A stretch of DNA of 40,400 nucleotides, from the NCBI GenBank assembly GCA_018062385.1, contig JAGOSI010000002.1, positions 1-40,400 on the forward strand, read 5' to 3'. How positions within the stretch are numbered: position 1 is the first letter of the stretch; every line of letters begins with the position of its first letter. The stretch comes from Minisyncoccota bacterium (GTDB lineage Bacteria; Patescibacteriota; Minisyncoccia; Phycocordibacterales; UBA918). Shown here in pieces: positions 3,195 through 35,480 of the stretch. The position numbers and the translations under genes were made by a program. A model generated the notes under the pieces. That model saw only the letters and a list, made by a program, of their open reading frames with translations, was not told the origin of the DNA and did no database searches.

Positions 3195-3246
3195 TACATA
3201 ACAACCCGTCCACTAAAATTTGGTAGAAAAGGGTTCATGATATTAT

Positions 3247-3274
3247 AACCCGCAGACTGTTAAGTCTGCGGGTT
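3247..3274 (-). terminator. Hairpin downstream of the cohesin-protein gene
   Basis: aacccgcagact-gtta-agtctgcgggtt is a 12-bp perfect stem. The flanking U-tract is weak and AT-rich. Confidence 0.45.
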
Positions 3275-3304
3275 ATATCTTTAAATTATGTGGATTCAGA
3301 CTTC

Positions 3305-4852: not shown

Positions 4853-4869
4853 AATGAACTTTTATAAAA

Positions 4870-5337
4870 CTATTTACTACTTGGCTTACGATCCTGCTTT
4901 ACCCTCAATCTAACTCTTTCCTTTTCCGATGATTTTAATAATGGAAGAATAAGTATTAAAACTCCATTCTTTATTTTTGCCTCCGCTTTTTCTATATCAA
5001 CACTTTCTGGTAAAATAATTCTACGGTAAAAATCACCCCATACGCACTCCTGCGCAAAGTAGGCACCTTGCTCTTTCTTTTTTGAAAAAACCAAATAATC
5101 AGGACGAATCCTCCTACCCTCAATCAAAACAATATCTGCATCACCTTCAATTGAAACATTAACATCGTTCATATCTGCACCTGATGACTGAGCATAGATA
5201 ACAATCATTTTCTCAGTTTGATACACATCAACATCAAGTTGAGCAACTTTATCTACAGCTGTCTCTTCAGAATCTGACTGCAAAGACGCTTGTCCAGATC
5301 TCACCCCTCTATTTTTTAATCTCTGTAGAAATGACAT
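4870..5337 (-). CDS. Small heat-shock protein, Hsp20/alpha-crystallin family
   Basis: Alpha-crystallin-like core (VDVYQTEKMIVIYAQSSGADMNDVNVSIEGD..LIEGRR) and the C-terminal KNGVLILILP motif typical of sHSPs. 155 aa. Confidence 0.8.
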   Translation of the reverse strand: MSFLQRLKNRGVRSGQASLQSDSEETAVDKVAQLDVDVYQTEKMIVIYAQSSGADMNDVNVSIEGDADIVLIEGRRIRPDYLVFSKKKEQGAYFAQECVWGDFYRRIILPESVDIEKAEAKIKNGVLILILPLLKSSEKERVRLRVKQDRKPSSK

Positions 5338-5391
5338 ATTACATATATTATATAGTCTCTTTATTATTTTTTATTGCTTATACCCACAATT

Positions 5392-7362: not shown

Positions 7363-9129
7363 TTACTCAAGCAGAAATCCTCCAGATTGATGACTCCATA
7401 ACTTAGCATAAACACCACCCTTATCTTTTAGAGTATTATGATCTCCATCTTCCACTACCACCCCAGAATCAAGCACAACAATGCGGTCCATTTCCCGTAA
7501 GGTTGACAGACGATGAGCAATAGCTATCACAGTCTTCCCTTCCATTAAAGTATGCAAGGCTTTTTGAATTAACATTTCACTCTCACTATCAAGCGCAGAG
7601 GTAGCTTCGTCCAAAATAAGAATTGGCGCATTTTTCAACATCGCTCTTGCTATAGCTACTCGCTGCTTTTGGCCACCCGACAATTTAACCCCACGCTCAC
7701 CCACCAAGGTATCATAGCCTTGAGGTAATTTTTCGATAAACTCATGCGCGTGAGCCTGTTTTGCTACCGCCACTACCTCATCATGACTAGCTTCTGGTTT
7801 GCTATATGCAATATTTTCTCTAATTGTTCTGTGAAATAAAGCCGGCTCTTGTGGCACTACAGCAATTGCTTGCCTTAGAGAATCCTGAGTCACAGAGGCA
7901 ATGTCTTGACCATCAATAAATATCCGACCTCCATTTAGCTCATGTTGCCTTAACAAAAGCGACACAAAAGTAGTTTTTCCAGCTCCTGAAGTCCCAACCA
8001 ATCCCACTCTCTGACCAGCTGGGATATTTAAATTGAACTTTGAAAAAACTTGATTATCCTCAAAACCAAAATCAACAGACCTCCAATCAATGCTACCGTT
8101 TTTTATTTTTAATGATTTTGCTTCCTCATTATCAACAATCTCATAATCTACTAGCAAATCATCTAATCCTTCTCTAAGTTCACCTACGGTTTTAGCCATA
8201 GCATTAAAAGCTCTACCTATAAATACAAGTGAGCCAGAAATATTAAACATCAATGCCACCACCATAATAAAATCACCACTAGTTATCAATCCTCCTTCCC
8301 ACTTATTTAATATCAACCAAAACATCCCTAAAGAAAACGCAAATAAAATAAAAATATTAAGTAACAGCAGTTTTTCGGTATAGAACCAATTATTTCTGTG
8401 AGCAATTCTTCGTTTTTCAGTTAATATAGCCAAACCGTTCAACTCTTGTTTAAATTTAGCATATTGTCTAACAGCACTGATATTAGAAAAGGTATCAACA
8501 GTTCTACCTGTTAAAATAGTGTTGGCTTCAGAGCTAATTTTTGACAACTCAGCTTTCTTTGGTGCTAAATATTTATTTACAAAAAATAAAACTATTAGCA
8601 AAAGTACAAAAAGCGAAGCTACTATCATATCAACCAACCAAAGAAGGATGAAGGTAGCCAAAAATCCAACAAACGACGCCAATTGTGCCCACAAAAAATC
8701 TGGGATAATTTCCTCAACTGCACCAATTACATTTCTTTGTTTACTAAGAACCGAACCAGCAAAACGATTAATAAAATAAGTATGACTGTGTTGCAAAACG
8801 TGACGGTTTAAATTATCAGTCGCAGTTTTAGCTGCTCGCGTTGTCCAGTTAGCTGCCGCGAATCCGCTAATTCGATACATAAGCTGGGCAAACAACAGAA
8901 CCACGGGGAAAAGCAGACCCCAAAACAAGACTGTATTCATTTCACCAGCTTCCACTGCGTCAACCACCAATTTAAATAGATAGCTAGAACCTGATCCAAC
9001 CGAAGCTGCAACAATCACCGCAAAAATAGCCAGAAAAGACCACCATTTATGGGGAGCTGAGGCATGAATAAAAAAAGCCAAAGGAGTGTTGGGAATTACT
9101 TTTTCTTTTGTTTTATTATTATCACTCAT
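7363..9129 (-). CDS. ABC exporter, fused permease/ATPase (MsbA/ABCB-like)
   Basis: Hydrophobic (multi-TM) N-terminal half. Walker A GTSGAGKTT, signature LSGGQKQRVAIARA, Walker B ILILDEATSALD, H-loop IAHRLST. Confidence 0.9.
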   Translation of the reverse strand: MSDNNKTKEKVIPNTPLAFFIHASAPHKWWSFLAIFAVIVAASVGSGSSYLFKLVVDAVEAGEMNTVLFWGLLFPVVLLFAQLMYRISGFAAANWTTRAAKTATDNLNRHVLQHSHTYFINRFAGSVLSKQRNVIGAVEEIIPDFLWAQLASFVGFLATFILLWLVDMIVASLFVLLLIVLFFVNKYLAPKKAELSKISSEANTILTGRTVDTFSNISAVRQYAKFKQELNGLAILTEKRRIAHRNNWFYTEKLLLLNIFILFAFSLGMFWLILNKWEGGLITSGDFIMVVALMFNISGSLVFIGRAFNAMAKTVGELREGLDDLLVDYEIVDNEEAKSLKIKNGSIDWRSVDFGFEDNQVFSKFNLNIPAGQRVGLVGTSGAGKTTFVSLLLRQHELNGGRIFIDGQDIASVTQDSLRQAIAVVPQEPALFHRTIRENIAYSKPEASHDEVVAVAKQAHAHEFIEKLPQGYDTLVGERGVKLSGGQKQRVAIARAMLKNAPILILDEATSALDSESEMLIQKALHTLMEGKTVIAIAHRLSTLREMDRIVVLDSGVVVEDGDHNTLKDKGGVYAKLWSHQSGGFLLE

Positions 9130-23463: not shown

Positions 23464-23970
23464 CTATAAAGTTTCAAAATAATTCCAGAGTTTGGCAAGA
23501 CTCAGCCAAGCCTGACTATTAAAATCAACATTAGTACCACAAGTGTCTAATTCGTACTTTTCACCATCTTTAGTAATGACAAAATTATAATCGGTACCAC
23601 CTTCGTCAGAAGCACAATTGGTTATTGAATTAGTTTTAGATTGTTTAGTTAAGGTTTTACTCTCAAGATTTTTCATTAGTTCGCTACGAAGATCGAGACT
23701 GATCACTCCATTTTTAGCCACCTCACCCACTCTAGATTCAGAGGAAACCATACGATAAGAACCATCAGCCAATAATTGAAAAGACATACAACCTTTCATT
23801 TCGCAACTTCCATAAGCTTGCCCCTCAACTACAAAATCCTCATAAAAATCTTTTTCTGGAACACTTCCCCCAAATTCAAAGGAGAAACCAGTAAAATAAA
23901 AATATACTCCCGCCACAACCCCCACACTAAAAGTGAGAGCCATACTAATTTTGTCCTGATGAGTAATCAT
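23464..23970 (-). CDS. Membrane-anchored Cys-containing protein, unknown function
   Basis: N-terminal TM (ALTFSVGVVAGVYFYFTGF), then a soluble domain with six Cys. Confidence 0.55.
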   Translation of the reverse strand: MITHQDKISMALTFSVGVVAGVYFYFTGFSFEFGGSVPEKDFYEDFVVEGQAYGSCEMKGCMSFQLLADGSYRMVSSESRVGEVAKNGVISLDLRSELMKNLESKTLTKQSKTNSITNCASDEGGTDYNFVITKDGEKYELDTCGTNVDFNSQAWLSLAKLWNYFETL

Positions 23971-24099
23971 TGTCTAAAATTATAGCACTAGATATCACCC
24001 CTCCACTCTTGCACATTCCCCCAAACCACAGTACTCTGCCTTCGGACTTACGACATTCTGTCTAAGTTCTTTTTCAATTAAATAAAGAAGGAGGTTATT

Positions 24100-26922
24100 A
24101 TGGCAACAACGGTTGCTTTCGGTAGTAATCTAGTGGTTGATGAAGGAGGTGGAAACGTCTATCTTGTCGTTAATCGTACAGGAGATTTGACTGGTACTAC
24201 TTTAGTGGTGGTCGATGAAGATTGGTCAAGAAGTTCAGCAGAGACTGACGATGTTATCTTTAACCCGTATGTAGCTGGGGCGAGTATAGTTTACCTACCT
24301 GACACACGTCAAGTATTGTTGAAGTTTAATCCAGGAGTAAAAACTCTAAAGATTCCATACAGTATCAGTAATGATATTGTGAGTGAATTGTCGGAGAGAT
24401 TGTATTTCTCGTTGTCTTATATTACTCCAGTTATAATCGGAGATGATGATGCGAATATCAAAATCAACGCGAGTGATCCAGTCTTAAGTATTCATGGATT
24501 GTGGGTAGATGAAGGCCAGACTACAAATTCATATATTGAACTTAGTCATGCGGTTAATTTTGCAGTGACGGTGAAAGTCTCAACCTACTTCGGTACCTAC
24601 AAACAAGCAAATTACTTAGGTGAGGGTAAAGACTATAAAGGTTTGGTAGATCAATTGGTAACCATACCAGCTGGTCAAACCAAGGCTTATGTACCATTTC
24701 TCACTTATCAAAATGATGATCCAAATGACTGGAAGTATGAGTCAACGGAAATCAGGATTGAAGCAACTTCTATTCCAAACGGAGTATTGGCTGGACAAAT
24801 AAGTGATGTGGTGACTATCATAGATGTGGCAACACCGCCTCCACCACCCACTCTACCAATTCTCACCCTCTACGATGGTGGTTTAGCATTTGAAAATGAG
24901 TCTACTCACTCTTATGCCGAGCTTAGTGATCCAGTAGACCATGATGTTACCTTTAAGGTTAGTACGTATTTCGGTACGTATCAACAAGCTAATTATCTTG
25001 GTGAAGCTGGTGACTATGATGGTTTGATAGATAAATTATTTACCATTCAAGCAGGTCAGACAAGGGTGGATATTCCTGTACAAATAAATCAAAACCCTGA
25101 TCCAGAGGATTGGGAATATGAAGCGTTTGAACTGCGTATCGAAGCCCCAACTGTATTTGGTGCAACACTAGGTGTGGGCAGTGTCATCATTAATATCAAA
25201 GATGTATCAACTTGGGTAGAGCCGCCACCACCAACTGTGACACCACTAACAGCAACAATGTTGGAAAGTCACAAACAAGCTTTTCTCAATCTCGAATCTG
25301 AGGTGGGGACGAGTTCGGCAGTAGCAATTATTGCTGGCAATAAGGAATTATCTAATGTTGGTAAAACTTTAGATGTTTTCGGTCTATTATCAAGTGGTGT
25401 CAAAAACGCCATCACTTGGTTTGCTGGTAGTTCAGCTTATGCAAATCAGGAAGAATTACCGCTATTTACTCTAACTCAAAAGCAAATCAATATTGGTTTG
25501 CGTTTGCAGTCTAGGGTAGATTCTGATCAAGTGGCTACCGATCCAATTGACTGGACTACAGAGGAAGTAAATGACACTGATGGTTTAGGGTTGAGAGTTG
25601 GTGATTATGTTGATGGTAGGGTAGTTATTGCTCAGCCTTTGATTTCACTTTCTTATGCTGATCATGATTGGTATGTATCACAAGGTATGAGTGATGGAAC
25701 TGGAGATATGATTAGTCATTTTACTAAGAATATTATTAATCATCTTGGGGAAAAATCTGTTGGTATTGCTGAGGTGGCTATCGATTATTCTTTGAGAGAT
25801 AAATGGTTAGCAGAATCAGGGACAGAGACATATTTCTATGCTCAAGCTCCAGGAAAAATTATTTCAATTGCAGATAATACGACCGGAGAGGGCCCAGGAA
25901 GTTTTGGTAACTCTATTACTATCCTGTTGGATAAACCAGCTAAGATAAATGGTGGGGATTATCAAGTGTATGTTACTTACGCTCATGCTAAAGCTGGATC
26001 CATTATTTCTACAACGGGTCCAGATTCAGTAGGTGATCATGTTGATGTTGGTACACCACTTGGTATTGTGGGAAATAGTGGTTTTGCTATTGGGAAGCAT
26101 ATACATGCGACCTATGCAACTGGCTACTATGAACCAGATGGATATAAAATTGCTAGTAATGTTGGTAATATATCAAAATCTGATCCTCTTGATTCACCTC
26201 GAGAAGGTGGTGTTTCCATATCACCTGTATACATCATCGGCTTCAATCCAAGCCAAAATGGTTTTCCATCTGGTCCAAATCCAAATGTAGAACCATCGCA
26301 ACTTGGATATAAACCTTTCGGTGCCAGTGGTAATTTTATAGTTCCAGATAATGTAATTATGGGAACTGATGGTAAAGATTACTTTTCTGGTACTGATAGT
26401 GATACTGTCTATTACGGTGGTGACCATTATGATGATCAGATTGATTATGTCGGTATTGGGTCATGGCGAAGCAATTTTGCTGTTACTCAAAACCCCGATA
26501 GCTCAATCAATCTCGACAGTGCCAAATTCGGTTTTGACATCCTAAAAGACGTCGAAGGGGTTTGGTTTGAAGGAGAATGGAAATGGTACACCAAAGCTGA
26601 TCTCCTAAAACCTTTAAATACCAATGTTGTCTTAGGGAAAGAAACCGGTGATGTTCTCTATGGTTCTTCAGACATAGATATGTTTGCTGGTGGAGCTGGT
26701 AATGATCATTTTGTCGGCAGTATTGGCAATGATGTATACAACGGTGGTGATGGTGATGACACGGTAGAATATTATGGCGCCTATGCTTCTCGTGATAATT
26801 TTGTCTTCACACAAAATCCCAATGGCACCATTACAGCCAAGAGTGATTATTTTGGCACTGAAACCTATGTCAGTATTCAAGGTGTATGGTTTGATGGTAG
26901 TCAAGAGTGGCTTTCTTTGTAG
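24100..26922 (+). CDS. Large multidomain protein: three Calx-beta-like domains, M23/LytM-like peptidase domain, two RTX-like Ca-binding modules
   Basis: Strong RBS aaggagg at 24088-24094. Calx-beta-like repeats at about aa 1-123, 126-243 and 252-369, separated by PPPPPT/PPPPT linkers. M23-like block YAHAKAG..VGDHVDVGTPLGIVGNSGFAIGKHIHATY. RTX-like repeats GTDGKDYFSGTDSDTVYYGGD and FAGGAGNDHFVGSIGNDVYNGGDGDD. No N-terminal signal peptide. Confidence 0.8.
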   Translation: MATTVAFGSNLVVDEGGGNVYLVVNRTGDLTGTTLVVVDEDWSRSSAETDDVIFNPYVAGASIVYLPDTRQVLLKFNPGVKTLKIPYSISNDIVSELSERLYFSLSYITPVIIGDDDANIKINASDPVLSIHGLWVDEGQTTNSYIELSHAVNFAVTVKVSTYFGTYKQANYLGEGKDYKGLVDQLVTIPAGQTKAYVPFLTYQNDDPNDWKYESTEIRIEATSIPNGVLAGQISDVVTIIDVATPPPPPTLPILTLYDGGLAFENESTHSYAELSDPVDHDVTFKVSTYFGTYQQANYLGEAGDYDGLIDKLFTIQAGQTRVDIPVQINQNPDPEDWEYEAFELRIEAPTVFGATLGVGSVIINIKDVSTWVEPPPPTVTPLTATMLESHKQAFLNLESEVGTSSAVAIIAGNKELSNVGKTLDVFGLLSSGVKNAITWFAGSSAYANQEELPLFTLTQKQINIGLRLQSRVDSDQVATDPIDWTTEEVNDTDGLGLRVGDYVDGRVVIAQPLISLSYADHDWYVSQGMSDGTGDMISHFTKNIINHLGEKSVGIAEVAIDYSLRDKWLAESGTETYFYAQAPGKIISIADNTTGEGPGSFGNSITILLDKPAKINGGDYQVYVTYAHAKAGSIISTTGPDSVGDHVDVGTPLGIVGNSGFAIGKHIHATYATGYYEPDGYKIASNVGNISKSDPLDSPREGGVSISPVYIIGFNPSQNGFPSGPNPNVEPSQLGYKPFGASGNFIVPDNVIMGTDGKDYFSGTDSDTVYYGGDHYDDQIDYVGIGSWRSNFAVTQNPDSSINLDSAKFGFDILKDVEGVWFEGEWKWYTKADLLKPLNTNVVLGKETGDVLYGSSDIDMFAGGAGNDHFVGSIGNDVYNGGDGDDTVEYYGAYASRDNFVFTQNPNGTITAKSDYFGTETYVSIQGVWFDGSQEWLSL

Positions 26923-27140
26923 TTTAATTTAGTAGTCCTTTTTTGGTTCTTTAAAACCCTAAATCACAATGTGATTTAGGGTTTTCTTTTTACTTATTCT
27001 GTGGTACGGTACGTTTTATGAAAAAGACATTATTTATAACTATATTATTACTACTAACTGCCATAGTGGTCGGACTAGTGATTTTAAATGATAAAAAAGT
27101 ATCGGTTGAGCCAATAGTTAATAATGTTGCGACCACTACT
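26613..27140 (+). repeat. Copy A of ~530-bp mosaic direct repeat (resident cassette)
   Basis: Colinear with 28073-28603 at a constant offset of 1460 bp. 26613-26690 is 78/78 identical. The middle ~200 bp is diverged. 26895-27050 has about 7 mismatches in 156 bp. Confidence 0.9.
26953..26985 (+). terminator. Rho-independent terminator after the large gene
   Basis: aaaaccctaaatcac-aat-gtgatttagggtttt followed by ctttttt. Confidence 0.8.
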
Positions 27141-28055
27141 GAAGGTCTGTCTTTTAAAACTGGTCAAAAAATGATTTTTGTAGAGAATGTTGCGACCACT
27201 ACTGAAGGTCTGTCTTTTAAAACTGGTCAAAAAATGATTTTTGTAGATGATGAAAATGACTCAAGATGTCATGATAAAGATGGTTTTCCGGCTCTAGCTT
27301 TTTTACCAAAAACGGATAGTGTTTTTATTTTTTCTAATTTTGAGACCAGACTTAAAGAATATCCAATATTGAATATTGATGACACTACATTTTTGGTTTG
27401 TTCAAACAGTGAAACAAATAATTATAAAGTAGGGATACTTTACTCCAATAATTATTCAATAGTAGTTGTAAACAACGGTCATCTTACCGTGTTAGTAGAA
27501 GATATTATAGTTGAGTTAAATAAGCAGGGTTTTAATATTACAGAAAATCCAGATGATATTATTTTTAATCCAATGTATTTTTCTAGTAAAAATAATTCAA
27601 TAATTATTGGTAAAAATAGGTATGGAGTTGGTGGGTCATCTTCTAATCCGTTGTATTCTTATTCTTTGGAGACAGGCTCTTTCACGGAGCTTGCGATTTC
27701 AAAATATCATCATGATATGAATGGAATACTAACAAACCCGAACTCACCTTATTCGGTTGAGAGTGGAAAAATTTTAGTTTTACTTAACTTCGAAACTGAT
27801 ACATATAGAGTTATTTATGAGGCACTACCGAACGAAACTTTGACCTCAGAATGTGATATTGGTTGCAAGGTGGAAAATAAATGGTTGAGCGATGACGTTT
27901 TACTTTTCTATGTTTATTATTTTGATAAAAAAGAATATCAAAAAACGGGATATCGAGTAGAGCAATATAGTCTAAAACAGAAAAGAATATTAGATAAAAG
28001 TGAATGGATTGGTAGTGACGAAGACTATGTTAGTAAAGTCACTTTTTTTGATTAG
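27018..28055 (+). CDS. Signal-anchored extracytoplasmic protein, unknown function (cassette partner A)
   Basis: MKKTLFITILLLLTAIVVGLVIL signal anchor. By eye the body is more AT-rich than its neighbours. Contains a 21-aa perfect tandem duplication. No family recognised. Confidence 0.7.
   Translation: MKKTLFITILLLLTAIVVGLVILNDKKVSVEPIVNNVATTTEGLSFKTGQKMIFVENVATTTEGLSFKTGQKMIFVDDENDSRCHDKDGFPALAFLPKTDSVFIFSNFETRLKEYPILNIDDTTFLVCSNSETNNYKVGILYSNNYSIVVVNNGHLTVLVEDIIVELNKQGFNITENPDDIIFNPMYFSSKNNSIIIGKNRYGVGGSSSNPLYSYSLETGSFTELAISKYHHDMNGILTNPNSPYSVESGKILVLLNFETDTYRVIYEALPNETLTSECDIGCKVENKWLSDDVLLFYVYYFDKKEYQKTGYRVEQYSLKQKRILDKSEWIGSDEDYVSKVTFFD
27123..27248 (+). repeat. 63-bp tandem duplication (2 units, 62/63 identical), in frame
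   Basis: aatgttgcgaccactactgaaggtctgtcttttaaaactggtcaaaaaatgatttttgtaga[g/t] occurs twice (27123-27185 and 27186-27248). It encodes NVATTTEGLSFKTGQKMIFV(E/D) twice. Confidence 0.95.
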
Positions 28056-28058
28056 TAG

Positions 28059-28382
28059 TTTGTATGTAGAGATTTAAATACCAATGTTGTCTTAGGGAAA
28101 GAAACCGGTGATGTTCTCTATGGTTCTTCAGACATAGATATGTTTGCTGGCGGTGCTGGTAATGATCATTTTGTCGGTAGTATTGGCAATGACACCTATA
28201 ACGGTGGTGGTGACTATGATACGGTAGAATATTACGGTACTGAAGCCTCGCGTAATAATTTTACTTTTACCTATAATGCAAACGGTTCTATTATTGCAGA
28301 AAGTGATCAGTTCGGAACTGAAATATATGTTGGTATCGAAGGAGTTTGGTTTGGTGGTAGTCAAGAATGGCTTTCTTTGTAG
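28059..28382 (+). pseudogene. Promoterless, 5'-truncated orphan copy of the C-terminal RTX module of the 24100-26922 gene
   Basis: The frame opens directly after TAG 28056-28058. Homology starts at 28073, equivalent to L839 of the large protein. It encodes LNTNVVLGKETGDVLYGSSDIDMFAGGAGNDHFVGSIGNDTYNGGGDYDTVEYYG..GVWFGGSQEWLSL. There is no RBS or start other than the internal Met codon at 28140. Confidence 0.75.
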
Positions 28383-28603
28383 TTTAATTTAGTAGTTCTT
28401 TTTTGGTTCTTTAAAACCCTAAATCACAATGTGATTTAGGGTTTTCTTTTTGTTTGTTGTGTGGTACGGTACGTTTTATGAAAAAGACATTATTTATAAC
28501 TATATTACTATTACTTGCCATTATTGTGGTCGGTTTAGTAATTTGGAGTGACAAACAGTCAGTCATTGAACCTGTGGTTGATACTAATGTGGCTACTACA
28601 AGT
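28073..28603 (+). repeat. Copy B of ~530-bp mosaic direct repeat (orphan cassette)
   Basis: See copy A. Covers the orphan RTX module, the duplicated terminator and the first ~40 codons of the next gene. Confidence 0.9.
28413..28445 (+). terminator. Duplicate of the 26953-26985 terminator
   Basis: Identical hairpin sequence, 1460 bp downstream of copy A. Confidence 0.8.
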
Positions 28604-29164
28604 GCTATTTCTTCTGTTCCTTCACCCCTAACCCTCGCTTCACTCCAAGCTCTACCGGACTGGAACCCCACCATGGAAGTGGAAGGTATGAAAAGAGTGG
28701 AAGATGGTAATCCAGAGTTGGAGGTGAAGAATCTTCCAATTCATACGGAAGAAATAAGATCTAACAATTCTAGTTCTACTTTTGTGATTAAATATCTAGA
28801 ACCAGAGGTTAGTAATGAGGCGTGTGAGAAGTACGGTTTAACTGGAGAACCCTCAGGATATTTACTTAGATATAATTGTTTAATCGCTACACCCGATCTG
28901 TTCAATGAATTGATTGTTCTTTCGGGAAATACTGGTGAAGTGTTGCATAAGTATAGGTTGAAGGAGGGATATTCTTTGGCTGGTGATGTGTATCGAAGAG
29001 AAGGAGGGATTGTAACTATCAATAATTCCGTTGATAAGAAAATTATAGGTATATACATATATAAATGGGATTTTTCAAGTGATGTTCTTGAAAGAACTCC
29101 AGTTCTTCGTGACTATAGAATTAATTTAATTACCGGTGAAATAACCGAAATCAAACCACGTTAA
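28478..29164 (+). CDS. Signal-anchored extracytoplasmic protein, unknown function (cassette partner B)
   Basis: ATG 28478 equals 27018 + 1460. MKKTLFITILLLLAIIVVGLVIW is near-identical to partner A, and the two are unrelated after ..NVATT. The track start 28454 is a non-ATG extension. Confidence 0.7.
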   Translation: MKKTLFITILLLLAIIVVGLVIWSDKQSVIEPVVDTNVATTSAISSVPSPLTLASLQALPDWNPTMEVEGMKRVEDGNPELEVKNLPIHTEEIRSNNSSSTFVIKYLEPEVSNEACEKYGLTGEPSGYLLRYNCLIATPDLFNELIVLSGNTGEVLHKYRLKEGYSLAGDVYRREGGIVTINNSVDKKIIGIYIYKWDFSSDVLERTPVLRDYRINLITGEITEIKPR

Positions 29165-29298
29165 CTCTGTATGACAGGGGGCTAGCTTTTGAAAATGAGC
29201 TATTCATTCTTATGCCGATTTTAGTCAGTCGGTAGACCATGACGTTAATTTCAAGGTGAGTACGTATTTCGGTGCGTACTAGCAAGTCAATTACCTTT
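29165..29298 (+). pseudogene. Decayed fragment homologous to the start of the third Calx-beta repeat of the large gene (24868-24999)
   Basis: Alignable by eye: ..gaaaatgag..cttatgccga..ggtagaccatgacgtt..aaggtgagtacgtatttcggtgcgtac.. It carries +1/-1 indels and an in-frame TAG where the parent has CAA. Confidence 0.7.
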
Positions 29299-29306
29299 AT
29301 TTTCAG

Positions 29307-29335
29307 TTCACAAACCCATAAAATAGTAGTACAAT
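29307..29335 (+). promoter_or_regulatory. Sigma-70-like promoter for 29387-29656
   Basis: ttcaca, 17-nt spacer, tacaat. Followed by direct repeats ctagggtaa at 29342-29350 and 29359-29367, then RBS aggaga at 29375-29380. Confidence 0.4.
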
Positions 29336-29386
29336 ATTCGGCTAGGGTAATATTTACTCTAGGGTAAATTTCACAGGAGACGTTAC

Positions 29387-29656
29387 ATGGTTAATATGGT
29401 GTCCAATTACGAAAATGATCCACTTAGTATTTTGGGCGGAGTAATAAGAAAGCACTGTCGAGAAATTGGAAAAAGTTTTCTCTCCACAATAAATGATACA
29501 GATATAGTGATAAAAAATTTTACCATAGACAGGAAGGCTAAAACGAGAATTTACAAATGCATAGTACATCTTTGTCACAGTCTTATCGTGATAATACCAA
29601 ACAATCCCGAGATGGGCTTGGATGAAATTATCCAAAAATCACATATTAAAACATAG
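29387..29656 (+). CDS. Small protein (89 aa), possibly a Xre-like HTH regulator
   Basis: Good RBS and spacing, with a terminator at 29664-29694. LSILGGVIRKHCREIGKSFLS weakly resembles the start of an Xre HTH. Preferred over the antisense ORF 29354-29635, which lacks these signals. Confidence 0.5.
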   Translation: MVNMVSNYENDPLSILGGVIRKHCREIGKSFLSTINDTDIVIKNFTIDRKAKTRIYKCIVHLCHSLIVIIPNNPEMGLDEIIQKSHIKT

Positions 29657-29663
29657 CTCTACG

Positions 29664-29694
29664 CCGACAATCTTAGATTAGATTGTCGGTTTTT
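29664..29694 (+). terminator. Rho-independent terminator
   Basis: ccgacaatct-tagatt-agattgtcgg followed by ttttt. Confidence 0.75.
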
Positions 29695-29705
29695 ATATAA
29701 AAGTA

Positions 29706-29732
29706 TTTACAAATACAAATATTTGTTGTAAA
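29706..29732 (+). promoter_or_regulatory. Imperfect palindrome upstream of 29791-30090 (operator-like)
   Basis: tttacaa-ata-caaatatttg-ttgtaaa: outer 7-nt inverted arms around a 10-nt perfect palindrome. Confidence 0.3.
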
Positions 29733-29790
29733 TTATTCCAGCAGATTAATTCTGTAAAAGTACTTTAAACAACAACGAGGAGTGGTTAAA

Positions 29791-30090
29791 ATGACACACG
29801 GATTTTGTGTTAAGAAAGCTTTAAATAAAGAAGGTTGGGTTATATGCAATGAGTCATTTAGAACTTTAGTAGCTAATATGGCTCTAGAATTAAGCACTCA
29901 CCTGTGCAGAGACCTAGGTAAAGAAAACTACACACCGGGACAACTTACTGAAGTTCAAGAACCGGAGATAAGTGCCAATGGAATGACACGATTGTTATTT
30001 CGAGTAGGCATTGTCTACTGTGAAATTAAGGCTTTTTTTGACAAAACATTAATGATGTTTACCAATACAAAATTTGGCATCATCCAATAG
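29791..30090 (+). CDS. Small protein (99 aa), unknown function
   Basis: RBS gaggag at 29777-29782, 8 nt before ATG 29791. Terminator immediately downstream. No family recognised. Confidence 0.5.
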   Translation: MTHGFCVKKALNKEGWVICNESFRTLVANMALELSTHLCRDLGKENYTPGQLTEVQEPEISANGMTRLLFRVGIVYCEIKAFFDKTLMMFTNTKFGIIQ

Positions 30091-30097
30091 CTTTTCC

Positions 30098-30137
30098 AAA
30101 AACCCCAACTTATTATTCAATAGTAAGTTGGGGTTTT
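30098..30137. terminator. Bidirectional terminator between convergent 29791-30090 and the sipW-like gene
   Basis: aaaaaccccaactta-loop-taagttggggtttt with T-runs on both strands. Confidence 0.75.
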
Positions 30138-30154
30138 ATTTTTATTGATCAAAC

Positions 30155-31696
30155 CTATACTTCAGGCTCTGTCTCTGGCTGATTTTCATTATCACTTTCT
30201 TCTTCCGTAGTTGTCTCCAACTGATTTTCTGCCTCTTCAACCCCATCAGATTCTACCGATTCATTCTCCGTATCATCAACTTCATTACCAACTGGTTCGT
30301 CTATAGTTTCTGGTGCTGGTGCTGAATTATCTTCAATAACTGTTTCTACTTGCTCTACTGACTTACCAGAGTCTTCTAGCGGTTCTGATTTGGTCACAAG
30401 ATTAGTGAAGTCAGCCTGTGGAGCTGGGATTAAGGTCTTGTTGGCTACAAAGGTTAGCACTATAGTTTCTGCATCAACATAACCCTGATCTTCACTATTA
30501 CCAGCATAACCCTCCATGATTAGATTTATAGTACAAGTATCACCAGAATTATACTCACTCGCTTCAGCCAATGAAAAATTTAAAGACCAAGGATTCAAGA
30601 AAGCAACATTGTTCCCAGTCAAACTAGATAAAGACCCAGAAAATGATAATGGTGAATCCGCACTCACTAAAATATCATCACAAAGTGCAACAGTACCACT
30701 AGCAAAGTTCATTGACACAGCATAATTAAAATTATTTTCGCCATCATTGATATTTACTTCAACTCCATCTTCTCCACTAAATTCACCGTCAAGGATAGAA
30801 AAACTGGCTAGTTCTGGACTAATAGTAAAATCCAAAGCTTGGGCTTTTAGATGATTATCAACACTAGCTTCAACATCGGCTGGATAAGCTAAAGAATATC
30901 CGACTCCGGTCTGCCCCAATAAAGTAATTATCATCACAAAACCAGCTGTAGCCACCACAAATCTTGATTTAATATCATGATTAGCAGCAAACATTGGTGA
31001 TTTATTTTTTAGTTGCAAAGCCGGATTTTCCACTTTCTGCACCTTTGGCTTAATATCCATCATTCTCACTTGAGCAGTAACTAATGGCTTTTTCACCGCC
31101 ACGGTTGGCATATTTAAAGTAGCTAAATTTAATGGATTTGGTTGATACGGCGCAATTACCAAAGGCATAATCATTTCCTTAGTAATTTTCATTTTACGCA
31201 CTCGTCTCACCTCCCGCCCAATATTATCTAATTCATCAATAATAATTAGGAGTGCAGGCAAACCAATCAACAAAGCAAAACCAGCTGGTTGTCGAGCAAA
31301 ATCCAACACAAAACCAAGGTAAGGAACATCTACCATTACCTTACCCAAAATATCACGGACAGAAACCAAATTGGCATCACGCTCTTCGTTGGCGTCACCT
31401 TTGGTGACAAAATATTCTTTCCCCTCAGACATTTCGGTACCTATAATGCGATGAGTAGTTGGAACATCACTATCGCGACTAGAGAATGTAATCACGTCTC
31501 CAACTCCGTAAACAGGCGCCGCTTGCACTACCACCACCGCACCAGTCATAATGGCTGGTTCCATCGATCCAGACTTAACAATCTTCACTTCAAATTCACC
31601 AAGTCCCGGAACTGGTGGGGCAAAGAAAAGTACCACCAGTGCCGCCAGGATTAGAGCATAGAAACTATAGAGAATGAAATTGAATATTTTTTTCAT
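30155..31696 (-). CDS. sipW: SipW-type (archaeal/ER-type S26) signal peptidase I fused to a TasA-like module and an acidic tail
   Basis: Core peptidase motifs: KSGSMEPAIMTGAVVVV, GDVITF, TTHRIIG, VTKGDANEERD, then a second TM. From aa ~244 there is a second signal-peptide-like segment, KSRFVVATAGFVMIITLLGQTGVGYSLAYPADVEASVDNHLKAQALDF. A beta domain ends QGYVDAETIVLTFVA, followed by a Glu/Asp-rich tail. The start is 1 nt after the upstream stop. Confidence 0.75.
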   Translation of the reverse strand: MKKIFNFILYSFYALILAALVVLFFAPPVPGLGEFEVKIVKSGSMEPAIMTGAVVVVQAAPVYGVGDVITFSSRDSDVPTTHRIIGTEMSEGKEYFVTKGDANEERDANLVSVRDILGKVMVDVPYLGFVLDFARQPAGFALLIGLPALLIIIDELDNIGREVRRVRKMKITKEMIMPLVIAPYQPNPLNLATLNMPTVAVKKPLVTAQVRMMDIKPKVQKVENPALQLKNKSPMFAANHDIKSRFVVATAGFVMIITLLGQTGVGYSLAYPADVEASVDNHLKAQALDFTISPELASFSILDGEFSGEDGVEVNINDGENNFNYAVSMNFASGTVALCDDILVSADSPLSFSGSLSSLTGNNVAFLNPWSLNFSLAEASEYNSGDTCTINLIMEGYAGNSEDQGYVDAETIVLTFVANKTLIPAPQADFTNLVTKSEPLEDSGKSVEQVETVIEDNSAPAPETIDEPVGNEVDDTENESVESDGVEEAENQLETTTEEESDNENQPETEPEV

Positions 31697-31697
31697 A

Positions 31698-32735
31698 CTA
31701 GCTATTTCTACCAGTTACTCTACTAATAGTATTACGAACATTATCTCTCAGCCTTTCAGACAAAGTTCTGGTTTCAGACACTCGATAAAAACGATCACTT
31801 TCGATTTGACCTGAAGGCAAACCATCATCATCGGTATAGTCATCTTCATTATTTGAGTGTCCAGGATTGGAGTTATCGTTATGGTCATTATCATTACCGT
31901 GTCCATTATTCCCTTTTGGCTCACAGTTCTTTCCTTTTTTATCTTTACACTCTGGTTTTGGCTTTGGCGGTTTTACTTCCTTTTTACACTTAAATCCTTG
32001 ATTTGAATTGGCTTGTACTGCTCGTAGCACCACATCTACAGTCATTGAGTCTGTTTGCATCACATTTCCCAAACCAGACCCATCACAACTCACATTAGCG
32101 TTACTCAAATTAACCTGCAAATCTCCTGCACACCAAATAATTCCAACATAATTAGTAGAATTAACAGCACAGGAATTACCAGTGTTAGCATCGGCCACAG
32201 CATATGTGGTACTGCTTAAAAGGGTACTGGCTGTTTCGGTGGCACTGCCACCGAAGATCACTTTTTCATTTTTCTCAAACACATTATCGCCGTCATCACG
32301 CCAAGCGAAAAACTCAAGATTTTGTGATAATTCACCACTCGGTAAATTATCAACAATTGATTCTGGTTCGTTCATTCCGTTTTCAAAGTCCTGTAGATTG
32401 TTGAAATCAAGACAAATATAAGCTGGATTTTTCTTCACATGAAGACTTATATTATGTCGTCCCATATCTCCTGGTTTGATGTCGTCAAAATTAAAGAAAT
32501 GATCGACACCTGGCACTAAGTCTTTCAATTTCCAACTTAAAGCCGGTTGTGAAACTCCGTTGTAAACGGCTTTGCTATCAACTTTTAATTCCAAGCCACT
32601 TTGTCCTTGGCCATTTTTTGTAGCAAAGGTATAACCAGTTCCAGCTCCATTCGCCACCAAAACTACCAGCAGGAATCCTAGCACTGCTAAGACTAGCGTG
32701 ATCTTGATTCCTCTGTGGTAGAAAGTTTTTGGCAT
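31698..32735 (-). CDS. TasA/camelysin-like paralog 3 (divergent signal region, His/Asn/Asp-rich tail)
   Basis: Shares FFNFDDIKPGDMGRHNISLHV, NEPES, GELSQNLEFFAWRDDGDNVFE, YVGIIWCAGDL and QTDSMTVDVVL..FKC with the two upstream paralogs. The tail contains HGNDNDHNDNSNPGHSNNEDDY. Confidence 0.65.
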   Translation of the reverse strand: MPKTFYHRGIKITLVLAVLGFLLVVLVANGAGTGYTFATKNGQGQSGLELKVDSKAVYNGVSQPALSWKLKDLVPGVDHFFNFDDIKPGDMGRHNISLHVKKNPAYICLDFNNLQDFENGMNEPESIVDNLPSGELSQNLEFFAWRDDGDNVFEKNEKVIFGGSATETASTLLSSTTYAVADANTGNSCAVNSTNYVGIIWCAGDLQVNLSNANVSCDGSGLGNVMQTDSMTVDVVLRAVQANSNQGFKCKKEVKPPKPKPECKDKKGKNCEPKGNNGHGNDNDHNDNSNPGHSNNEDDYTDDDGLPSGQIESDRFYRVSETRTLSERLRDNVRNTISRVTGRNS

Positions 32736-32771
32736 GAATGAAATTTTAAATTAACCGCCTTTTTCTAATCC

Positions 32772-34160
32772 TTAATCCTGCAATACTCCACAATTTAGGG
32801 CGCTCACGGCATCAAGATCATAACCATCGGCTGTTGCCTCAAACGGTGCTCGAGGAGACACATCGGTAATTCGCACATACTTTGCCCAAGCTAGACCTGA
32901 AGAAGCTAAATCTGCCTCAGTATCCCTGTCGGCACTTGCGGTTACCAAGAACCAATTAGTTCCATTCTGACTAACTTCAATTTTTATCTTTTCAGTTGGA
33001 TAACTAGTTCCTCCTGTCACCTCCCAAGCTCGCAAATCGTTTCCTGGACCATCTACGATATAACCACTTCCAAATTCTAGGACAATAGAGCCACCTTCAA
33101 CAATCGTGGTACTAGAATTGAAACCTAAACTAAAGAAACTGTTGGCTACCACCGGACTATCAAATGGTGTTCCCATACTCTGTGGTGCACCAAGAACAAA
33201 ACTAGGATTTGTTCGGTCAGCTGTTACTGGAGTACCATTCTTTCGCACTCCCTGACTAGAAGTCACAACACTGCTAGCGTAGGTTTGAACTGGCAAAGTA
33301 CAAGCGGTGAAAACTGGCTCAGAATTACACTTAAAGTCAGCATTATGACGAGCTTGAGTTGCAATAAATTGTACATCTGCGGTCAGTGAGTCGGTTTGGC
33401 TTTCATTTCCAAGCAGTGAACCGTTACAAGTCACACCACCGTCTTCTGGAGTACCGATTTCCTGATCATTGTTGTTATCTAAGTTGGGAGCGCGGTTCAC
33501 ACTAGAATTATCTTGAGTTAATGGATCTGTACCCATTTCGCCAAAACACCAAGCCTTACCAATATACATAGTTTCACTACCTGCGAGTGGTCCACCCTCA
33601 TTATTTTCGTTCCAAATATTAGTTTCGGAATCAGCGAGCGTGATTGTATGAGCTTCATTCAAAGTCAGAGCCCCGATGGCTCCAGGACCAGAGATAACCG
33701 TCTCATCATCCTCTAGCACATTATCGCCATCATCTGCCCACCAAATGAAGTTTACTAATGAAGCTAATTCACCCTCATTTTCTCCAGCGGTGTTATCTAC
33801 TTCTGCTTCCGGCTCAGTTTGGCCGTTTTCATTATTGGAGGTTAAGGTTACATCAGCACAGACAAAGGAATCATTGTTGTCGACATGAATCGAAATAGTA
33901 TCTTCACCATAATCACTTGGCTTCAAATCACCAAAATCAAAAAACTTTTCAATAGTCAGATCTTTTTGCTCCCAGGTCGTAGAAGCATTTAAAACACCAT
34001 TATAATAACTCTCATTATCAATCTTTAGATCAATCGCTCCCGCAGTAAAGACGTTGGCGACTGAAGTCTCACTATCGGAGAAAAAGGCTTTGGTTACTCC
34101 AAAAGCGACCGACCCACCAGCCACTACAATCAAAGCTACGCTTAGGAAAATTCGTTGCAT
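32772..34160 (-). CDS. TasA/camelysin-like paralog 2 with extra C-terminal beta-sandwich domain
   Basis: SipW-type signal peptide plus mature N-terminus: ..GSVAFGVTKAFFSDSETSVANVFTAGAIDLKIDN. Also FFDFGDLKPSDYGEDTISIHV and QTDSLTADVQFIATQA. ATG 34160 is preferred over TTG 34205. Confidence 0.75.
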   Translation of the reverse strand: MQRIFLSVALIVVAGGSVAFGVTKAFFSDSETSVANVFTAGAIDLKIDNESYYNGVLNASTTWEQKDLTIEKFFDFGDLKPSDYGEDTISIHVDNNDSFVCADVTLTSNNENGQTEPEAEVDNTAGENEGELASLVNFIWWADDGDNVLEDDETVISGPGAIGALTLNEAHTITLADSETNIWNENNEGGPLAGSETMYIGKAWCFGEMGTDPLTQDNSSVNRAPNLDNNNDQEIGTPEDGGVTCNGSLLGNESQTDSLTADVQFIATQARHNADFKCNSEPVFTACTLPVQTYASSVVTSSQGVRKNGTPVTADRTNPSFVLGAPQSMGTPFDSPVVANSFFSLGFNSSTTIVEGGSIVLEFGSGYIVDGPGNDLRAWEVTGGTSYPTEKIKIEVSQNGTNWFLVTASADRDTEADLASSGLAWAKYVRITDVSPRAPFEATADGYDLDAVSALNCGVLQD

Positions 34161-34286
34161 ATAATATTTATTAAAATCAGAACTTGATAAACTTTTTAAT
34201 AACAATCACGCTGATCCCCTTCAGCCCGCTAAATCCCAGAAACTGAGATTTAGAACGGCTAAATAAGATTATCTTATACGGATTTA

Positions 34287-35480
34287 TTAAGTAGTGTAGG
34301 TATTGGTTGCTTCACAAGTCACAGCTTCGCCAAGAGCGATGGTAACTTGACTACCAACTTCAGGTGTAGCATTTCCAGTACATGACCAAGTCAACACTTC
34401 CCCACCAGGTCCAGCTGGTAATTCACCTAGAGTGTAGACTCCTGGCAACACTACAGCATTGGTAACAGAAAGAGCACCTTCAATTCCAGAAATGGTTGAT
34501 GAACCTGTTGCTGTTAGTGTAAACGCTGAATCTGCAATAACTTCTGCAGGTGTAACTGTCTTAGCTAGTGTAAGAGTAGTAGTTGCTACTGGTTCTGGTT
34601 CTTCAACCACGCCAGGACAACGGAAGTTTTCGTTGTTTCGAGCTTGTTCGATGTAGAAGCTGATATCAGCTTTAAGTGAGTCAGTTTGACTTAGGTTTGT
34701 AACTGATTCTCCACTACATGAAAGAGTTGTACCAGTAACAGTTAGATCACCGTAGCACCAGTAAACTCCTACATATGTCGTTTCAAGAGCTTGAATAGCA
34801 CCAGTTTGTGGTGTGAAAAGTGGATAGGTTCCAGCAATTCCTACACCATCTTCATCATTGGCCAAAACTTGCTCTCCAGTTTCAAAGATATTATCGCCAT
34901 CATCTTCCCAAATAAAGAAGCTTAGTTCTTGGTCTAGTTCACCGGTAGTTGTACCGTTTACATCAACCACAGATTCTGGTTCGGTTTGAGTATTGTCAGC
35001 TGACTCTACATTACTGATAGTAGCGCACATGTAAGCGTCATTATTGACTACATGTAGAGATAGTGTGTTTTCACCATTATCTCCCGGCTTTAGGTCACCA
35101 TAATCGAAGAAAGTATGAGTTGGGCCAAGATCGGTCAGAGCCCAAGTACCTTCACAAGCAGTACCAGCTTGTGGCACATTGGCTGGGTTGGCGGTGTTGT
35201 AAACAATAATTGCAGCTGCGGCATCGCCCGTTAGTTCATTAACTGAACTAGAAGCGTTCCAAGTTACTACTGTTTCTGGTAGCCATTGACTAACTTGTCC
35301 ATCGTCAAAACAAACTAATCCATTAATATGGGCCACGCTATCAACCTTCAGATCAATCGCTCCTGCCGTAAACACGTTAGCTGTTGAAGTCTCCGTGTCA
35401 CTGAAGAAAGCGCCAGTTCCGCCGGCCACCACAGCCCCAGCAAAAACTATCATCCCTACCCCTTTAATAATTCCTTTCAT
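34287..35480 (-). CDS. TasA/camelysin-like paralog 1 (first gene of operon) with C-terminal prealbumin/Cna-B-like domain
   Basis: MKGIIKGVGMIVFAGAVVAGGTGAFFSDTETSTANVFTAGAIDLKVDS parallels B. subtilis TasA (..GGGTWAAFNDIKSKDATFASGTLDL). Also DLKPGD and QTDSLKADISFYIEQA (compare TasA QGNSIKLQFSFEATQ). Confidence 0.8.
   Translation of the reverse strand: MKGIIKGVGMIVFAGAVVAGGTGAFFSDTETSTANVFTAGAIDLKVDSVAHINGLVCFDDGQVSQWLPETVVTWNASSSVNELTGDAAAAIIVYNTANPANVPQAGTACEGTWALTDLGPTHTFFDYGDLKPGDNGENTLSLHVVNNDAYMCATISNVESADNTQTEPESVVDVNGTTTGELDQELSFFIWEDDGDNIFETGEQVLANDEDGVGIAGTYPLFTPQTGAIQALETTYVGVYWCYGDLTVTGTTLSCSGESVTNLSQTDSLKADISFYIEQARNNENFRCPGVVEEPEPVATTTLTLAKTVTPAEVIADSAFTLTATGSSTISGIEGALSVTNAVVLPGVYTLGELPAGPGGEVLTWSCTGNATPEVGSQVTIALGEAVTCEATNTYTT

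Follow-up and report, generated by a model that had tools for sequence, protein, structure and literature searches.

The window analysed here, a stretch of 40,400 nucleotides whose host is probably a member of the Patescibacteria (CPR, Nomurabacteria-like), carries a gene for a large protein whose last module recurs 1460 bp downstream as a second, truncated copy. What is this orphan copy, and how does it relate to the expressed gene and to the small genes that follow each copy? The parts of the locus are as follows.

24100-26922, + strand: main gene, 940 aa (open reading frame; strong Shine-Dalgarno GGAGG at 24090-24094)
24100-25239, + strand: Calx-beta/LapA-like repeats, about residues 1-380 (Calx-beta and LapA matched in relatives)
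25240-25629, + strand: linker in the main gene
25630-26304, + strand: M23-like metallopeptidase block (Pfam match below cutoff, matches in relatives, motif residues)
26305-26610, + strand: RTX module 1
26611-26919, + strand: RTX module 2
26613-26732, + strand: left arm, expressed copy, encoding LNTNVVLGKETGDVLYGSSDIDMFAGGAGNDHFVGSIGND
26733-26882, + strand: variable tip, main type (d_m), second half of the last RTX β-roll plus cap
26883-27047, + strand: right arm, first copy
26953-26985 and 28413-28445, + strand: terminator hairpin, 15-bp stem (terminator scan)
27018-28055, + strand: partner 1, signal-anchored, 345 aa, without family assignment
28059-28382, + strand: orphan, a 5'-truncated, start-less copy of RTX module 2 (homology from 28073)
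28073-28192, + strand: orphan left arm, a near-copy of the main-gene left arm
28193-28342, + strand: orphan-type tip (d_o), about 69% identical to the main-type tip
28343-28507, + strand: right arm, second copy, with the orphan stop (28380-28382), hairpin (28413-28445), TGGTACGGT spacer and ATG 28478
28478-29164, + strand: partner 2, signal-anchored, 228 aa, 'P2' family
29164-29297, + strand: dead fragment of a further large-gene copy (second Calx-like repeat), 75-80% identical to 24865-24999

Near-identical arms bracket a divergent tip

The two copies of module 2 share a register of +1460 without indels. In an ungapped comparison at this offset, 26613-26690 and 28073-28150 are identical at 78 of 78 positions, which bears out the identity, register and mosaic pattern described in the initial annotation. 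No exact direct repeat in the window is longer; in 30 dinucleotide-preserving shuffles of the window the longest repeat had a mean of 15.1 nt and a maximum of 17 nt. Its left edge is abrupt, with 7 of 30 positions identical immediately 5' of it. The left arm as a whole is 117/120 identical to 28073-28192 (mismatches at 26691, 26694 and 26718), identity drops to 103/150 (about 68-69%) in the tip, and it recovers to 156/165 (94.5%) in the right arm against 28343-28507; the right block as originally delimited (26895-27050) has 7 mismatches in 156 (95.5%). From 27048 to about 27130 identity falls to 57-73% with the register kept, and past about 27130 it is at chance level.

The first copy of the right arm comprises the last codons of the main gene (..SQEWLSL), its stop (26920-26922), the hairpin, the TGGTACGGT spacer, ATG 27018 and the first codons of partner 1. 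The hairpin is kept in the related loci L003, L006 and L018, in the last with one compensatory pair change. Four differences were scored in the codons of the left arm (26614-26733), all of them synonymous. With pS at 0.77 and pN at 0.19, the tip is saturated at synonymous positions; the divergence of the tips must therefore be old, while the arms around them have stayed near-identical. The two conserved arms proposed at the outset are thus present, and their preservation supports a role as recombination sites.

The locus is rearranged among close strains

Close strains have flanks that are 99.4-99.6% identical, yet they carry different C-terminal halves, first partners or orphan 5' ends, or have no orphan. 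Between the window and L003 or L006, identity collapses at about 25320 and is back at 100% from 28147. The segment exchanged between close strains either begins at about residue 408 and includes the M23 block or, as between L003 and L006, consists of that block alone. From 28147 onwards the orphans of the window and of L003 show 100% identity, but in 28087-28146 they agree at only 40 of 60 positions, and there the window orphan is the same as its own main gene; the left arm of the window has evidently been homogenised with that gene. The L003-type orphan reaches about 97 nt further into module 1; this additional part matches the window main gene at about 95%, and the next about 70 nt differ.

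Tip types also change places. In L018, L019 and L020, which represent a more distant population, the orphan position carries the tip type of the window's main gene (91% amino-acid identity). In the upstream tail copy of L018 and L019, which the contig end cuts off from the full-length gene to which it may belong, main-type and orphan-type stretches are clustered in a nucleotide mosaic (runs test with permutation, p = 2.5e-4). The initial annotation had called for a search for recombinant alleles. To judge from these alignments, the orphan and the expressed tail exchange sequence, and the locus is a mosaic produced by homologous recombination at short conserved arms, namely the GGxGxD repeat stretch and the block that runs from the CDS end through the terminator and spacer to the signal-anchor start.

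The main protein resembles signal-less RTX enzymes

HemolysinCabind (PF00353) matches the main protein above the Pfam cutoff (E=1.5e-5), and profile hits include CyaA and LipA. The model of the tail matches the RTX β-rolls of type I secretion (T1SS) substrates: PML lipase and CyaA block V (Foldseek probability 1.0 for both), alkaline protease and the AlgE4 R-module. The protein thus has the C-terminal GGxGxD nonapeptide β-roll by which T1SS RTX proteins are recognised. Its Peptidase_M23 match lies below the cutoff (17.4 bits versus 28.7, E=0.005); six of ten family members match this domain, with a best E of 2.3e-6, and H540, D562, H629 and H667-x-H669 correspond to M23 motifs, the zinc ligands of this LytM/lysostaphin-type family being H-x(n)-D and HxH. 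A sequence-profile search found no M23 relative in the PDB.

No N-terminal signal peptide was apparent by eye. T1SS RTX substrates are typically encoded together with their own ABC transporter and membrane-fusion protein (MFP); here no ABC or MFP export genes adjoin the locus, the nearest ABC exporter being at 7363-9129, and the window contains no MFP gene. Pfam and NCBIfam searches returned only RTX, M23, Calx-beta and LapA, with no CdiA, Rhs, VENN, YD, haemagglutinin or TPS features. We infer that the large protein leaves the cell without a Sec signal, as serralysins, family I.3 lipases and other T1SS RTX enzymes do, and that it cuts peptidoglycan.

The orphan as a probable silent cassette

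The frame of the orphan is open from 28059, directly after an in-frame TAG (28056-28058). The interval from 28055 to 28413 contains no terminator, and transcription of partner 1 therefore probably runs on through the orphan, which would form the 3' end of that mRNA; translation of the orphan is improbable. The copy is start-less, truncated at its 5' end and located between conserved arms, in keeping with the silent, promoterless copy that had been suggested. Ten contigs, drawn from several samples and produced by several assemblers, carry its ORF, with one orphan per locus seen. In an alignment of orphan copies from 11 contigs, those of the window, L003 and L018 types keep an intact frame. Tail fragments of this kind recur in the window, L003 and L005, and L010 has a partner gene with a tip relic fused to it.

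The 54 untranslatable codons of the orphan differ between the L003 and L018 types with pS 0.46 and pN 0.059 (pN/pS 0.13; binomial P for codon-level constraint 4e-6 to 2e-3). Both types have the same illegitimate junction, which must therefore be old. The untranslatable 5' part evidently evolves under codon-level constraint, as coding DNA does.

We consider it reasonably probable that the orphan is a silent, 5'-truncated spare of the last RTX β-roll module of a secreted Calx/M23-peptidase/RTX protein encoded at a hypervariable, recombining effector locus, where a silent tail cassette stands beside a separate array of immunity-like membrane proteins. The orphan would date from the arrival of a tail-partner segment that pushed aside the resident tail, and would now act as both donor and acceptor in gene conversion with the expressed tail. 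Conversion would alter the surface of the terminal β-roll, for targeting or export, and leave the remainder of the gene untouched, while extra partner copies would give protection against the variants of neighbours. The exchange could take place between strains by DNA uptake instead of within one genome.

Alternatively, the orphan and the N-terminal fragment at 29164-29297 may be decaying remnants of tandem copies, with the identical arms an incidental result of useless gene conversion. This would suit the N-terminal fragment, which is clearly dead (frameshift and stop), and the varying 5' ends of orphans, which abut partner stop codons through illegitimate junctions. It would also suit L005, whose orphan has a nonsense codon, and L006, where the orphan and the second partner are absent; these two loci imply that the orphan is dispensable. 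However, neutral decay does not readily account for a low pN/pS in an untranslatable part that has persisted since an old common junction, for the intact frames of three orphan types, or for tip types that swap positions and form a mosaic, and we regard it as rather improbable.

Partner genes reassort separately from the tips

Partners 1 and 2 can be aligned over residues 1-41/42 only (71% identity), in agreement with their initial description as unrelated downstream proteins. Partner 1 has no Pfam or NCBIfam match and finds two weak matches only among 1.84e9 representative proteins; a 63-bp tandem duplication lies inside it (27123-27248). Partner 2 has about 22 relatives, none with a Pfam domain. 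In its AF2 model (pLDDT 82.7) residues 4-26 form a TM helix, and the fold has no significant match in the PDB. Members of the P2 family have a signal anchor, a β-rich ectodomain and two conserved cysteines, and comparison of partner 2 with its L003 copy indicates purifying selection (pN/pS 0.20). Across loci, the partner genes occur as arrays of 1 to 6 paralogues that evidently reassort separately and include fusions, chimeras and truncations. Immunity proteins against wall-targeting toxins are anchored in the membrane and point outward. The position, topology and array behaviour of the signal-anchored partners suggest that these are immunity- or inhibitor-like proteins guarding the producer's own wall.

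The initial annotation had taken the variable RTX tip and the next partner gene as a cognate pair swapped as one unit, in the style of CDI/Rhs orphan CT-immunity modules. The anatomy fits, since a start-less copy with upstream homology is followed by a complete gene, exactly the properties of CDI orphans (PMC3150448), and the orphan together with the start of partner 2 is 100% identical between the window and L003. Tips and partners nevertheless reassort across the window, L003 and L018: the gene after an orphan-type tip is partner 2 in the window and in L003 and a partnerX-like gene in L018, and the gene after a main-type tip is partner 1 in the window and a P2-type gene in L018. Between L003 and L004, tips are 75% identical and partners 37%. 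Moreover, the tip is an RTX β-roll with a cap and not a toxin, and the right arm that lies between tip and partner serves as a recombination site too. Partner identity follows M23 identity (rho 0.77) better than tip identity (rho 0.33) in locus pairs that are not phylogenetically independent. A cognate tip-partner unit is therefore unlikely. Strict pairing of enzyme and partner fails as well, because L003 and L006 have different M23 blocks (66.5% amino-acid identity) and the same partner (96.5%).

It is more doubtful still that the orphan encodes a small expressed RTX protein. The initial annotation had described the second copy as lacking both a start codon and a ribosome-binding site; there is indeed no start before 28140 and no Shine-Dalgarno was found there, in contrast to the GGAGG of the main gene, but the frame opens at 28059 and an internal ATG at 28140 yields an 80-aa ORF (28140-28382). 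This ORF matches HemolysinCabind, and two lineages that share 79% identity have it at equal length. That agreement is automatic, however, because the ATG sits in a DIDMFAGG motif conserved in every full-length tail, and the ORF leaves unexplained the low pN/pS of the 54 codons upstream of it. Finally, an assembly artefact (a collapsed or chimeric repeat), the concern raised initially, is refuted: short-read assemblies often break here (L001 ends 38 nt into the repeat, and L018 and L019 end in a tail copy), but independent assemblies from different samples and assemblers span both junction types (L002, L023, L003, L021, L022 and L024-26), with L001 and L002 (GCA_020047435.1) crossing from the end of partner 1 into the orphan and L023 (GCA_020054605.1) 100% identical to 27502-28526 of the window.

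Relation to known systems

CDI and Rhs orphans are 3'-end fragments of the gene for a large secreted protein that lie downstream of it without translation initiation signals, keep variable lengths of upstream homology and are each followed by a complete small gene; one strain's orphan is another's main tail, and recombination at a conserved stretch is the proposed loading mechanism (PMC3150448). The present locus shares the start-less 3' fragment, the upstream homology (here the 120-nt left arm), the following gene and the tail/orphan swap. Unlike those systems, it has neither two-partner secretion nor a YD-repeat protein, and the VENN and PxxxxDPxGL motifs are missing. Its tip is an RTX β-roll instead of a toxin, the probable M23-like enzyme is encoded upstream of the cassette, inheritance does not couple the tip to the downstream gene, and the organism is of Patescibacteria type.

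Silent-cassette gene conversion diversifies surface proteins in Neisseria (pilE/pilS), Borrelia (vlsE) and Mycoplasma (MgPa). As there, a promoterless, 5'-truncated copy lies near an expressed gene, conserved segments bracket variable ones, and the silent copy has a coding-type substitution pattern; the mosaic tail of L018 and L019 may correspond to the mosaic expressed alleles of those systems. Switching of the pilE/pilS type is frequent within a clone, depends on RecA and draws on a repertoire of several silent copies. The differences are that a single silent copy per locus is seen here, that neither high-frequency programmed switching nor a dedicated initiating element is in evidence, and that a probable RTX-tailed enzyme takes the place of a pilin or lipoprotein.

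With alkaline protease AprA and other serralysins, their inhibitors (Inh/AprI/LupI) and family I.3 lipases, the locus shares a predicted N-terminal metalloenzyme, a C-terminal RTX β-roll, the lack of a Sec signal and a neighbouring gene for an extracytoplasmic protein, and matches to the predicted tail model include 1kap, 1smp, 6ixx and 2z8x. The catalytic domain, however, is M23-like and not M10B, and adjacent ABC, MFP and OMF genes are absent. The partner, a putative inhibitor, is membrane-anchored, much larger and without a known fold relative. Gram-positive T7SS toxins are secreted proteins with arrays of immunity paralogues (EsaD/EsaG, TelC/TipC). The variable number of downstream paralogues, with chimeras and truncations, is similar here, whereas no T7SS or LXG/WXG features occur at the locus and the immunity role of the partners is putative.

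The orphan and silent-cassette logic known from CDI, Rhs and pilin systems is thus found on an RTX β-roll module, and it is the protein and the lineage that are new. The coding substitution pattern of an untranslatable silent fragment is direct genomic evidence of traffic between silent and expressed copies. Little is known of how ultra-small CPR bacteria attack, attach and compete, and the locus offers a concrete candidate in a putative hydrolase, M23-like and RTX-tailed but without a signal peptide, of which co-existing strains exchange domains and which is encoded beside arrays of membrane proteins with no recognised fold. More tentatively, a CPR episymbiont might use a pilS-like silent cassette to rewrite the terminal RTX β-roll of a secreted cell-wall hydrolase, retargeting it to host or competitor surfaces or altering its export, together with a separately shuffling immunity array of novel-fold membrane proteins. 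If true, this would be a two-layer variation system of a kind not described for RTX proteins or Patescibacteria, and should the partners turn out to inhibit M23 enzymes, they would form a new family of immunity proteins.

A third relic

The relic at 29164-29297, not mentioned in the initial annotation, starts at the stop codon of partner 2 and copies the N-terminal repeat region of the main gene with a 1-nt deletion and a TAG stop. It is identical in L003 and L006.

Sequence and structure of the large protein

The 940-aa protein is built from Calx-beta/LapA-like repeats and a linker, then an M23-like block (aa 511-735) and two RTX modules; by eye, it has no N-terminal signal peptide. The M23 block matches Pfam weakly in the window protein and is matched in 6 of 10 relatives, and the residues H540, D562, H629 and H667-x-H669 are present. 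A sequence-profile search of the PDB returned RTX proteins only, with M23 absent, and an NCBIfam search returned generic RTX and nothing further. An AlphaFold model was obtained for the two RTX modules (pLDDT 81.8), and the RTX module model matches T1SS beta-rolls, namely those of the PML and LipA lipases, CyaA block V, alkaline protease/serralysin and the AlgE4 R-module.

Thirteen relatives of the protein were found, one of them in a Candidatus Nomurabacteria genome, and two further relatives lie on MAGs labelled 'uncultured Candidatus Saccharibacteria bacterium'. When further loci were sought, a scan of genome contigs gave two loci already in the set and none new, a first metagenome scan gave zero, and scanning DNA for the pattern of the SQEWLSL terminus with its stop codon gave one contig, already in the set.

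A tail repeated at +1460

The elements of the locus are as follows.

24100..26922 (+): main gene, 940 aa
26883-27047 and its copy at +1460: right-hand block, comprising the end of the coding sequence, the stop codon, the terminator and the ATG that opens the next gene
26953-26985 and 28413-28445: terminator hairpins with a 15-bp stem, from a terminator scan
27018..28055 (+): partner 1, 345 aa, signal-anchored
28059..28382 (+): orphan, a 5′-truncated copy of RTX module 2
28478..29164 (+): partner 2, 228 aa, P2 family, signal-anchored

In a repeat search and ungapped comparison at an offset of +1460, with zero gaps, 26613-26690 is identical to 28073-28150 at 78/78 positions. Identity is 117/120 over 26613-26732, ~69% over 26733-26882 and 94.5% over the right-hand block; it is 57-73% through the signal-anchor codons to ~27130 and at chance level past that point. 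The longest exact repeat is 78 nt in the window, as against 17 nt in 30 dinucleotide shuffles of it. The exact 1460-bp register described in the initial annotation is thus confirmed, as is its statement that the two downstream proteins are unrelated past their starts, the common part being only the first 41-42 residues.

The initial annotation had named an assembly artefact as a finding that would refute its reading. This is ruled out, because both junction types are spanned by independent contigs. Contigs L001 and L002 (GCA_020047435.1) run across the point where partner 1 ends and the orphan starts, contig L023 (GCA_020054605.1) is 100% identical to window 27502-28526, and the 80-aa ORF of the orphan recurs in NCBI, ENA and Logan assemblies, on 10 contigs in all.

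The orphan copy

The orphan frame is open from 28059, directly after an in-frame TAG. The copy had been described as having neither start codon nor ribosome-binding site. The second part stands, since the ATG at 28140 has no Shine-Dalgarno sequence in front of it, unlike the main-gene ATG with its GGAGG six bases earlier; the first part needs amending, as this internal ATG is the earliest start codon.

The 54 codons before the ATG were compared between orphans of L003, a close strain, and L018, from a distant population. Synonymous changes number 16.5 and non-synonymous ones 7.5 (pN/pS 0.13; binomial P 4e-6, rising to 1.6e-3 if the synonymous fraction is set generously). As this part of the orphan is untranslatable in place yet evolves like coding sequence, it must, judging from its substitution pattern, exchange with expressed copies. 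The two tips, main-type (d_m) and orphan-type (d_o), have saturated synonymous sites (pS 0.77, pN 0.19) and are thus long-standing alleles kept under purifying selection. This saturation, with a pN/pS of ~0.25, rules out that selection has diversified the tip in situ. Locus L005 holds a second orphan type, which extends over both RTX modules and contains a single nonsense codon.

Downstream lies a relic overlooked in the initial annotation: 29164-29297, 75-80% identical to 24865-24999, lacks 1 nt and contains a TAG stop. It is a dead internal piece of the second Calx-like repeat of the large gene, begins exactly at the stop codon of partner 2 and is identical in sequence in L003 and L006. The fragment implies that more copies of the large gene formerly lay downstream.

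Natural variants in close strains and in a distant population

L003 and L006 are syntenic loci of very close strains, their flanks being 99.4-99.6% identical to the window. Both are identical to the window up to ~25320 (aa ~408); identity then collapses over the remaining part of the gene as well as the first partner, and returns to 100% at 28147, within the orphan. L003 carries another C-terminal half, from which L006 differs solely in the M23 block, followed by a P2-type first partner (partnerX), the orphan tip of the window and partner 2. L006 has neither the orphan nor the second partner. The L003 orphan contains ~97 nt extra of module 1, ~95% identical to the window main gene. In the ~70 nt that follow, it is unlike the window orphan, which there equals the window main gene exactly, so the 78/78 arm is a local conversion or crossover tract.

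L018, L019 and L020 (ENA ERZ27275022, ENA ERZ27275061 and JGI 3300007363) belong to a more distant population and were reached by a search with the orphan peptide, which the word index confined to two matches. Their orphan shares its illegitimate junction with that of L003 and bears the main-type tip of the window (91% aa identity to main protein residues 861-940). In L018 and L019, the tail copy 5′ of a partnerX-like gene alternates, at the nucleotide level, between main-type and orphan-type tracts (13 runs versus 25.3 expected, permutation p = 2.5e-4); this copy is cut off by the contig edge and is only putatively part of a full-length gene. These natural variants support the proposal of recombination arms and a silent copy.

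Other differences were seen among these contigs. At 29701-29704, the window is without a 1.73-kb segment found there in L003 (9482-11213) and L002 (1771-2091), which encodes an AhpC-like peroxiredoxin, a 219-aa protein and an HxlR regulator. Conversely, 229 bp of the window (29915-30143) are missing in L003, spanning the 3′ part of the first of two features and the second.

29782-30090: weak XisH-like ORF (Pfam E=0.0055)
30099-30137: strong terminator

In L026 (1-920), a contig with low coverage (1.4x), an L003-type orphan comes directly after the 3′ end of a gene of the partner-2 type; this order reflects either one more arrangement or an assembly chimera.

Tips and partners

A cognate unit of tip and partner, as originally suggested, is contradicted by the same tips preceding different partners. 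The d_o tip is followed by partner 2 both in the window and in L003 but by a partnerX-like gene in L018, and the d_m tip by partner 1 in the window but by a P2-type gene in L018. Over 36 locus pairs, which are not independent, the identity of first partners follows that of the M23 block (Spearman 0.77) and of module 1 (0.62) far more closely than that of the tip (0.33), with L003/L006 an exception. A strict rule that M23 type sets the partner family was dropped: L003/L006 violate it, and L013 fuses two partner families.

The P2 family comprises ~22 uncharacterised proteins, including partner 2, that have no Pfam domain and share a TM helix, a disordered linker and a beta-rich ectodomain with two conserved cysteines. 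The AF2 model of the fold is confident, yet no Foldseek match in the PDB lies below E=0.06. For partner 1, an exhaustive HMMER search of 1.84e9 representative proteins gave two weak matches only. A 63-bp tandem duplication in its gene (27123-27248; 62/63 identical) doubles the 21-aa NVATTTEGLSFKTGQKMIFVE directly after the signal anchor.

Partner arrays differ in size. In L014 (10001-14513) and L016, a 1026-aa family member is followed by six partner-like genes; L015 has three (2670-4780). L017 (2230-4004) has the first gene, then a chimera of the second and fifth, and a truncated piece of the sixth. In L010 (14238-15107) the C-terminus of a partner carries a fused RTX-tip relic, L013 (11582-13960) encodes two proteins each joining 'P-alt' and 'P2' partner domains, and L021 (1-1179) has a P2-P2 tandem fusion.

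The terminator-to-ATG spacers (26986-27017 and 28446-28477), TGTGGTACGGTACGTTTT-ATG, are kept also in L003, L006 and L018 and lack a Shine-Dalgarno sequence. Within them, TGGTACGGT is compatible with an extended -10, with the predicted transcription start approximately at the partner ATG; this position suggests that the partner mRNAs may be leaderless. The L018 hairpin at ~260-300, 5′ of the partnerX-like gene, has CCCC..GGGG versus CCCT..AGGG at window 26953-26985, a compensatory change that supports the terminator stem as a real structure. An Rfam scan of window 23900-30200 gave no match at gathering score.

Relation to known systems

The original reading is partly supported. From sequence, we infer that the locus may encode a putative secreted wall hydrolase with putative immunity-like partners and a silent tail cassette. 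In anatomy it comes closest to CDI/Rhs orphan modules (PMC3150448), and in how its tip behaves to silent-cassette gene conversion, but it belongs to neither: it lacks CdiA, Rhs or VENN features and tip-partner pairing, and has one silent copy only. T1SS serralysin/inhibitor systems are the nearest likeness for an enzyme with an RTX tail and an adjoining extracytoplasmic protein, although here export genes are not linked to the locus. Literature searches gave no relevant account of an RTX/M23/Calx system or of polymorphic toxins in Patescibacteria. What is new is that an arrangement of the known orphan/silent-cassette kind occurs in a lineage and a protein family that had not been studied.

Other genes in the window

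On the minus strand, 30155-35480 holds a cluster encoding an S26 signal-peptidase-like 513-aa protein with camelysin/TasA-like (PF12389) and SpaA-like proteins, resembling, by analogy, SipW/TasA fibre operons. Neighbouring genes at 3305-7305, also on the minus strand, specify a protein with a cohesin domain (3305-4852) and one that combines a dockerin domain with Ig-like domains (5392-7305).
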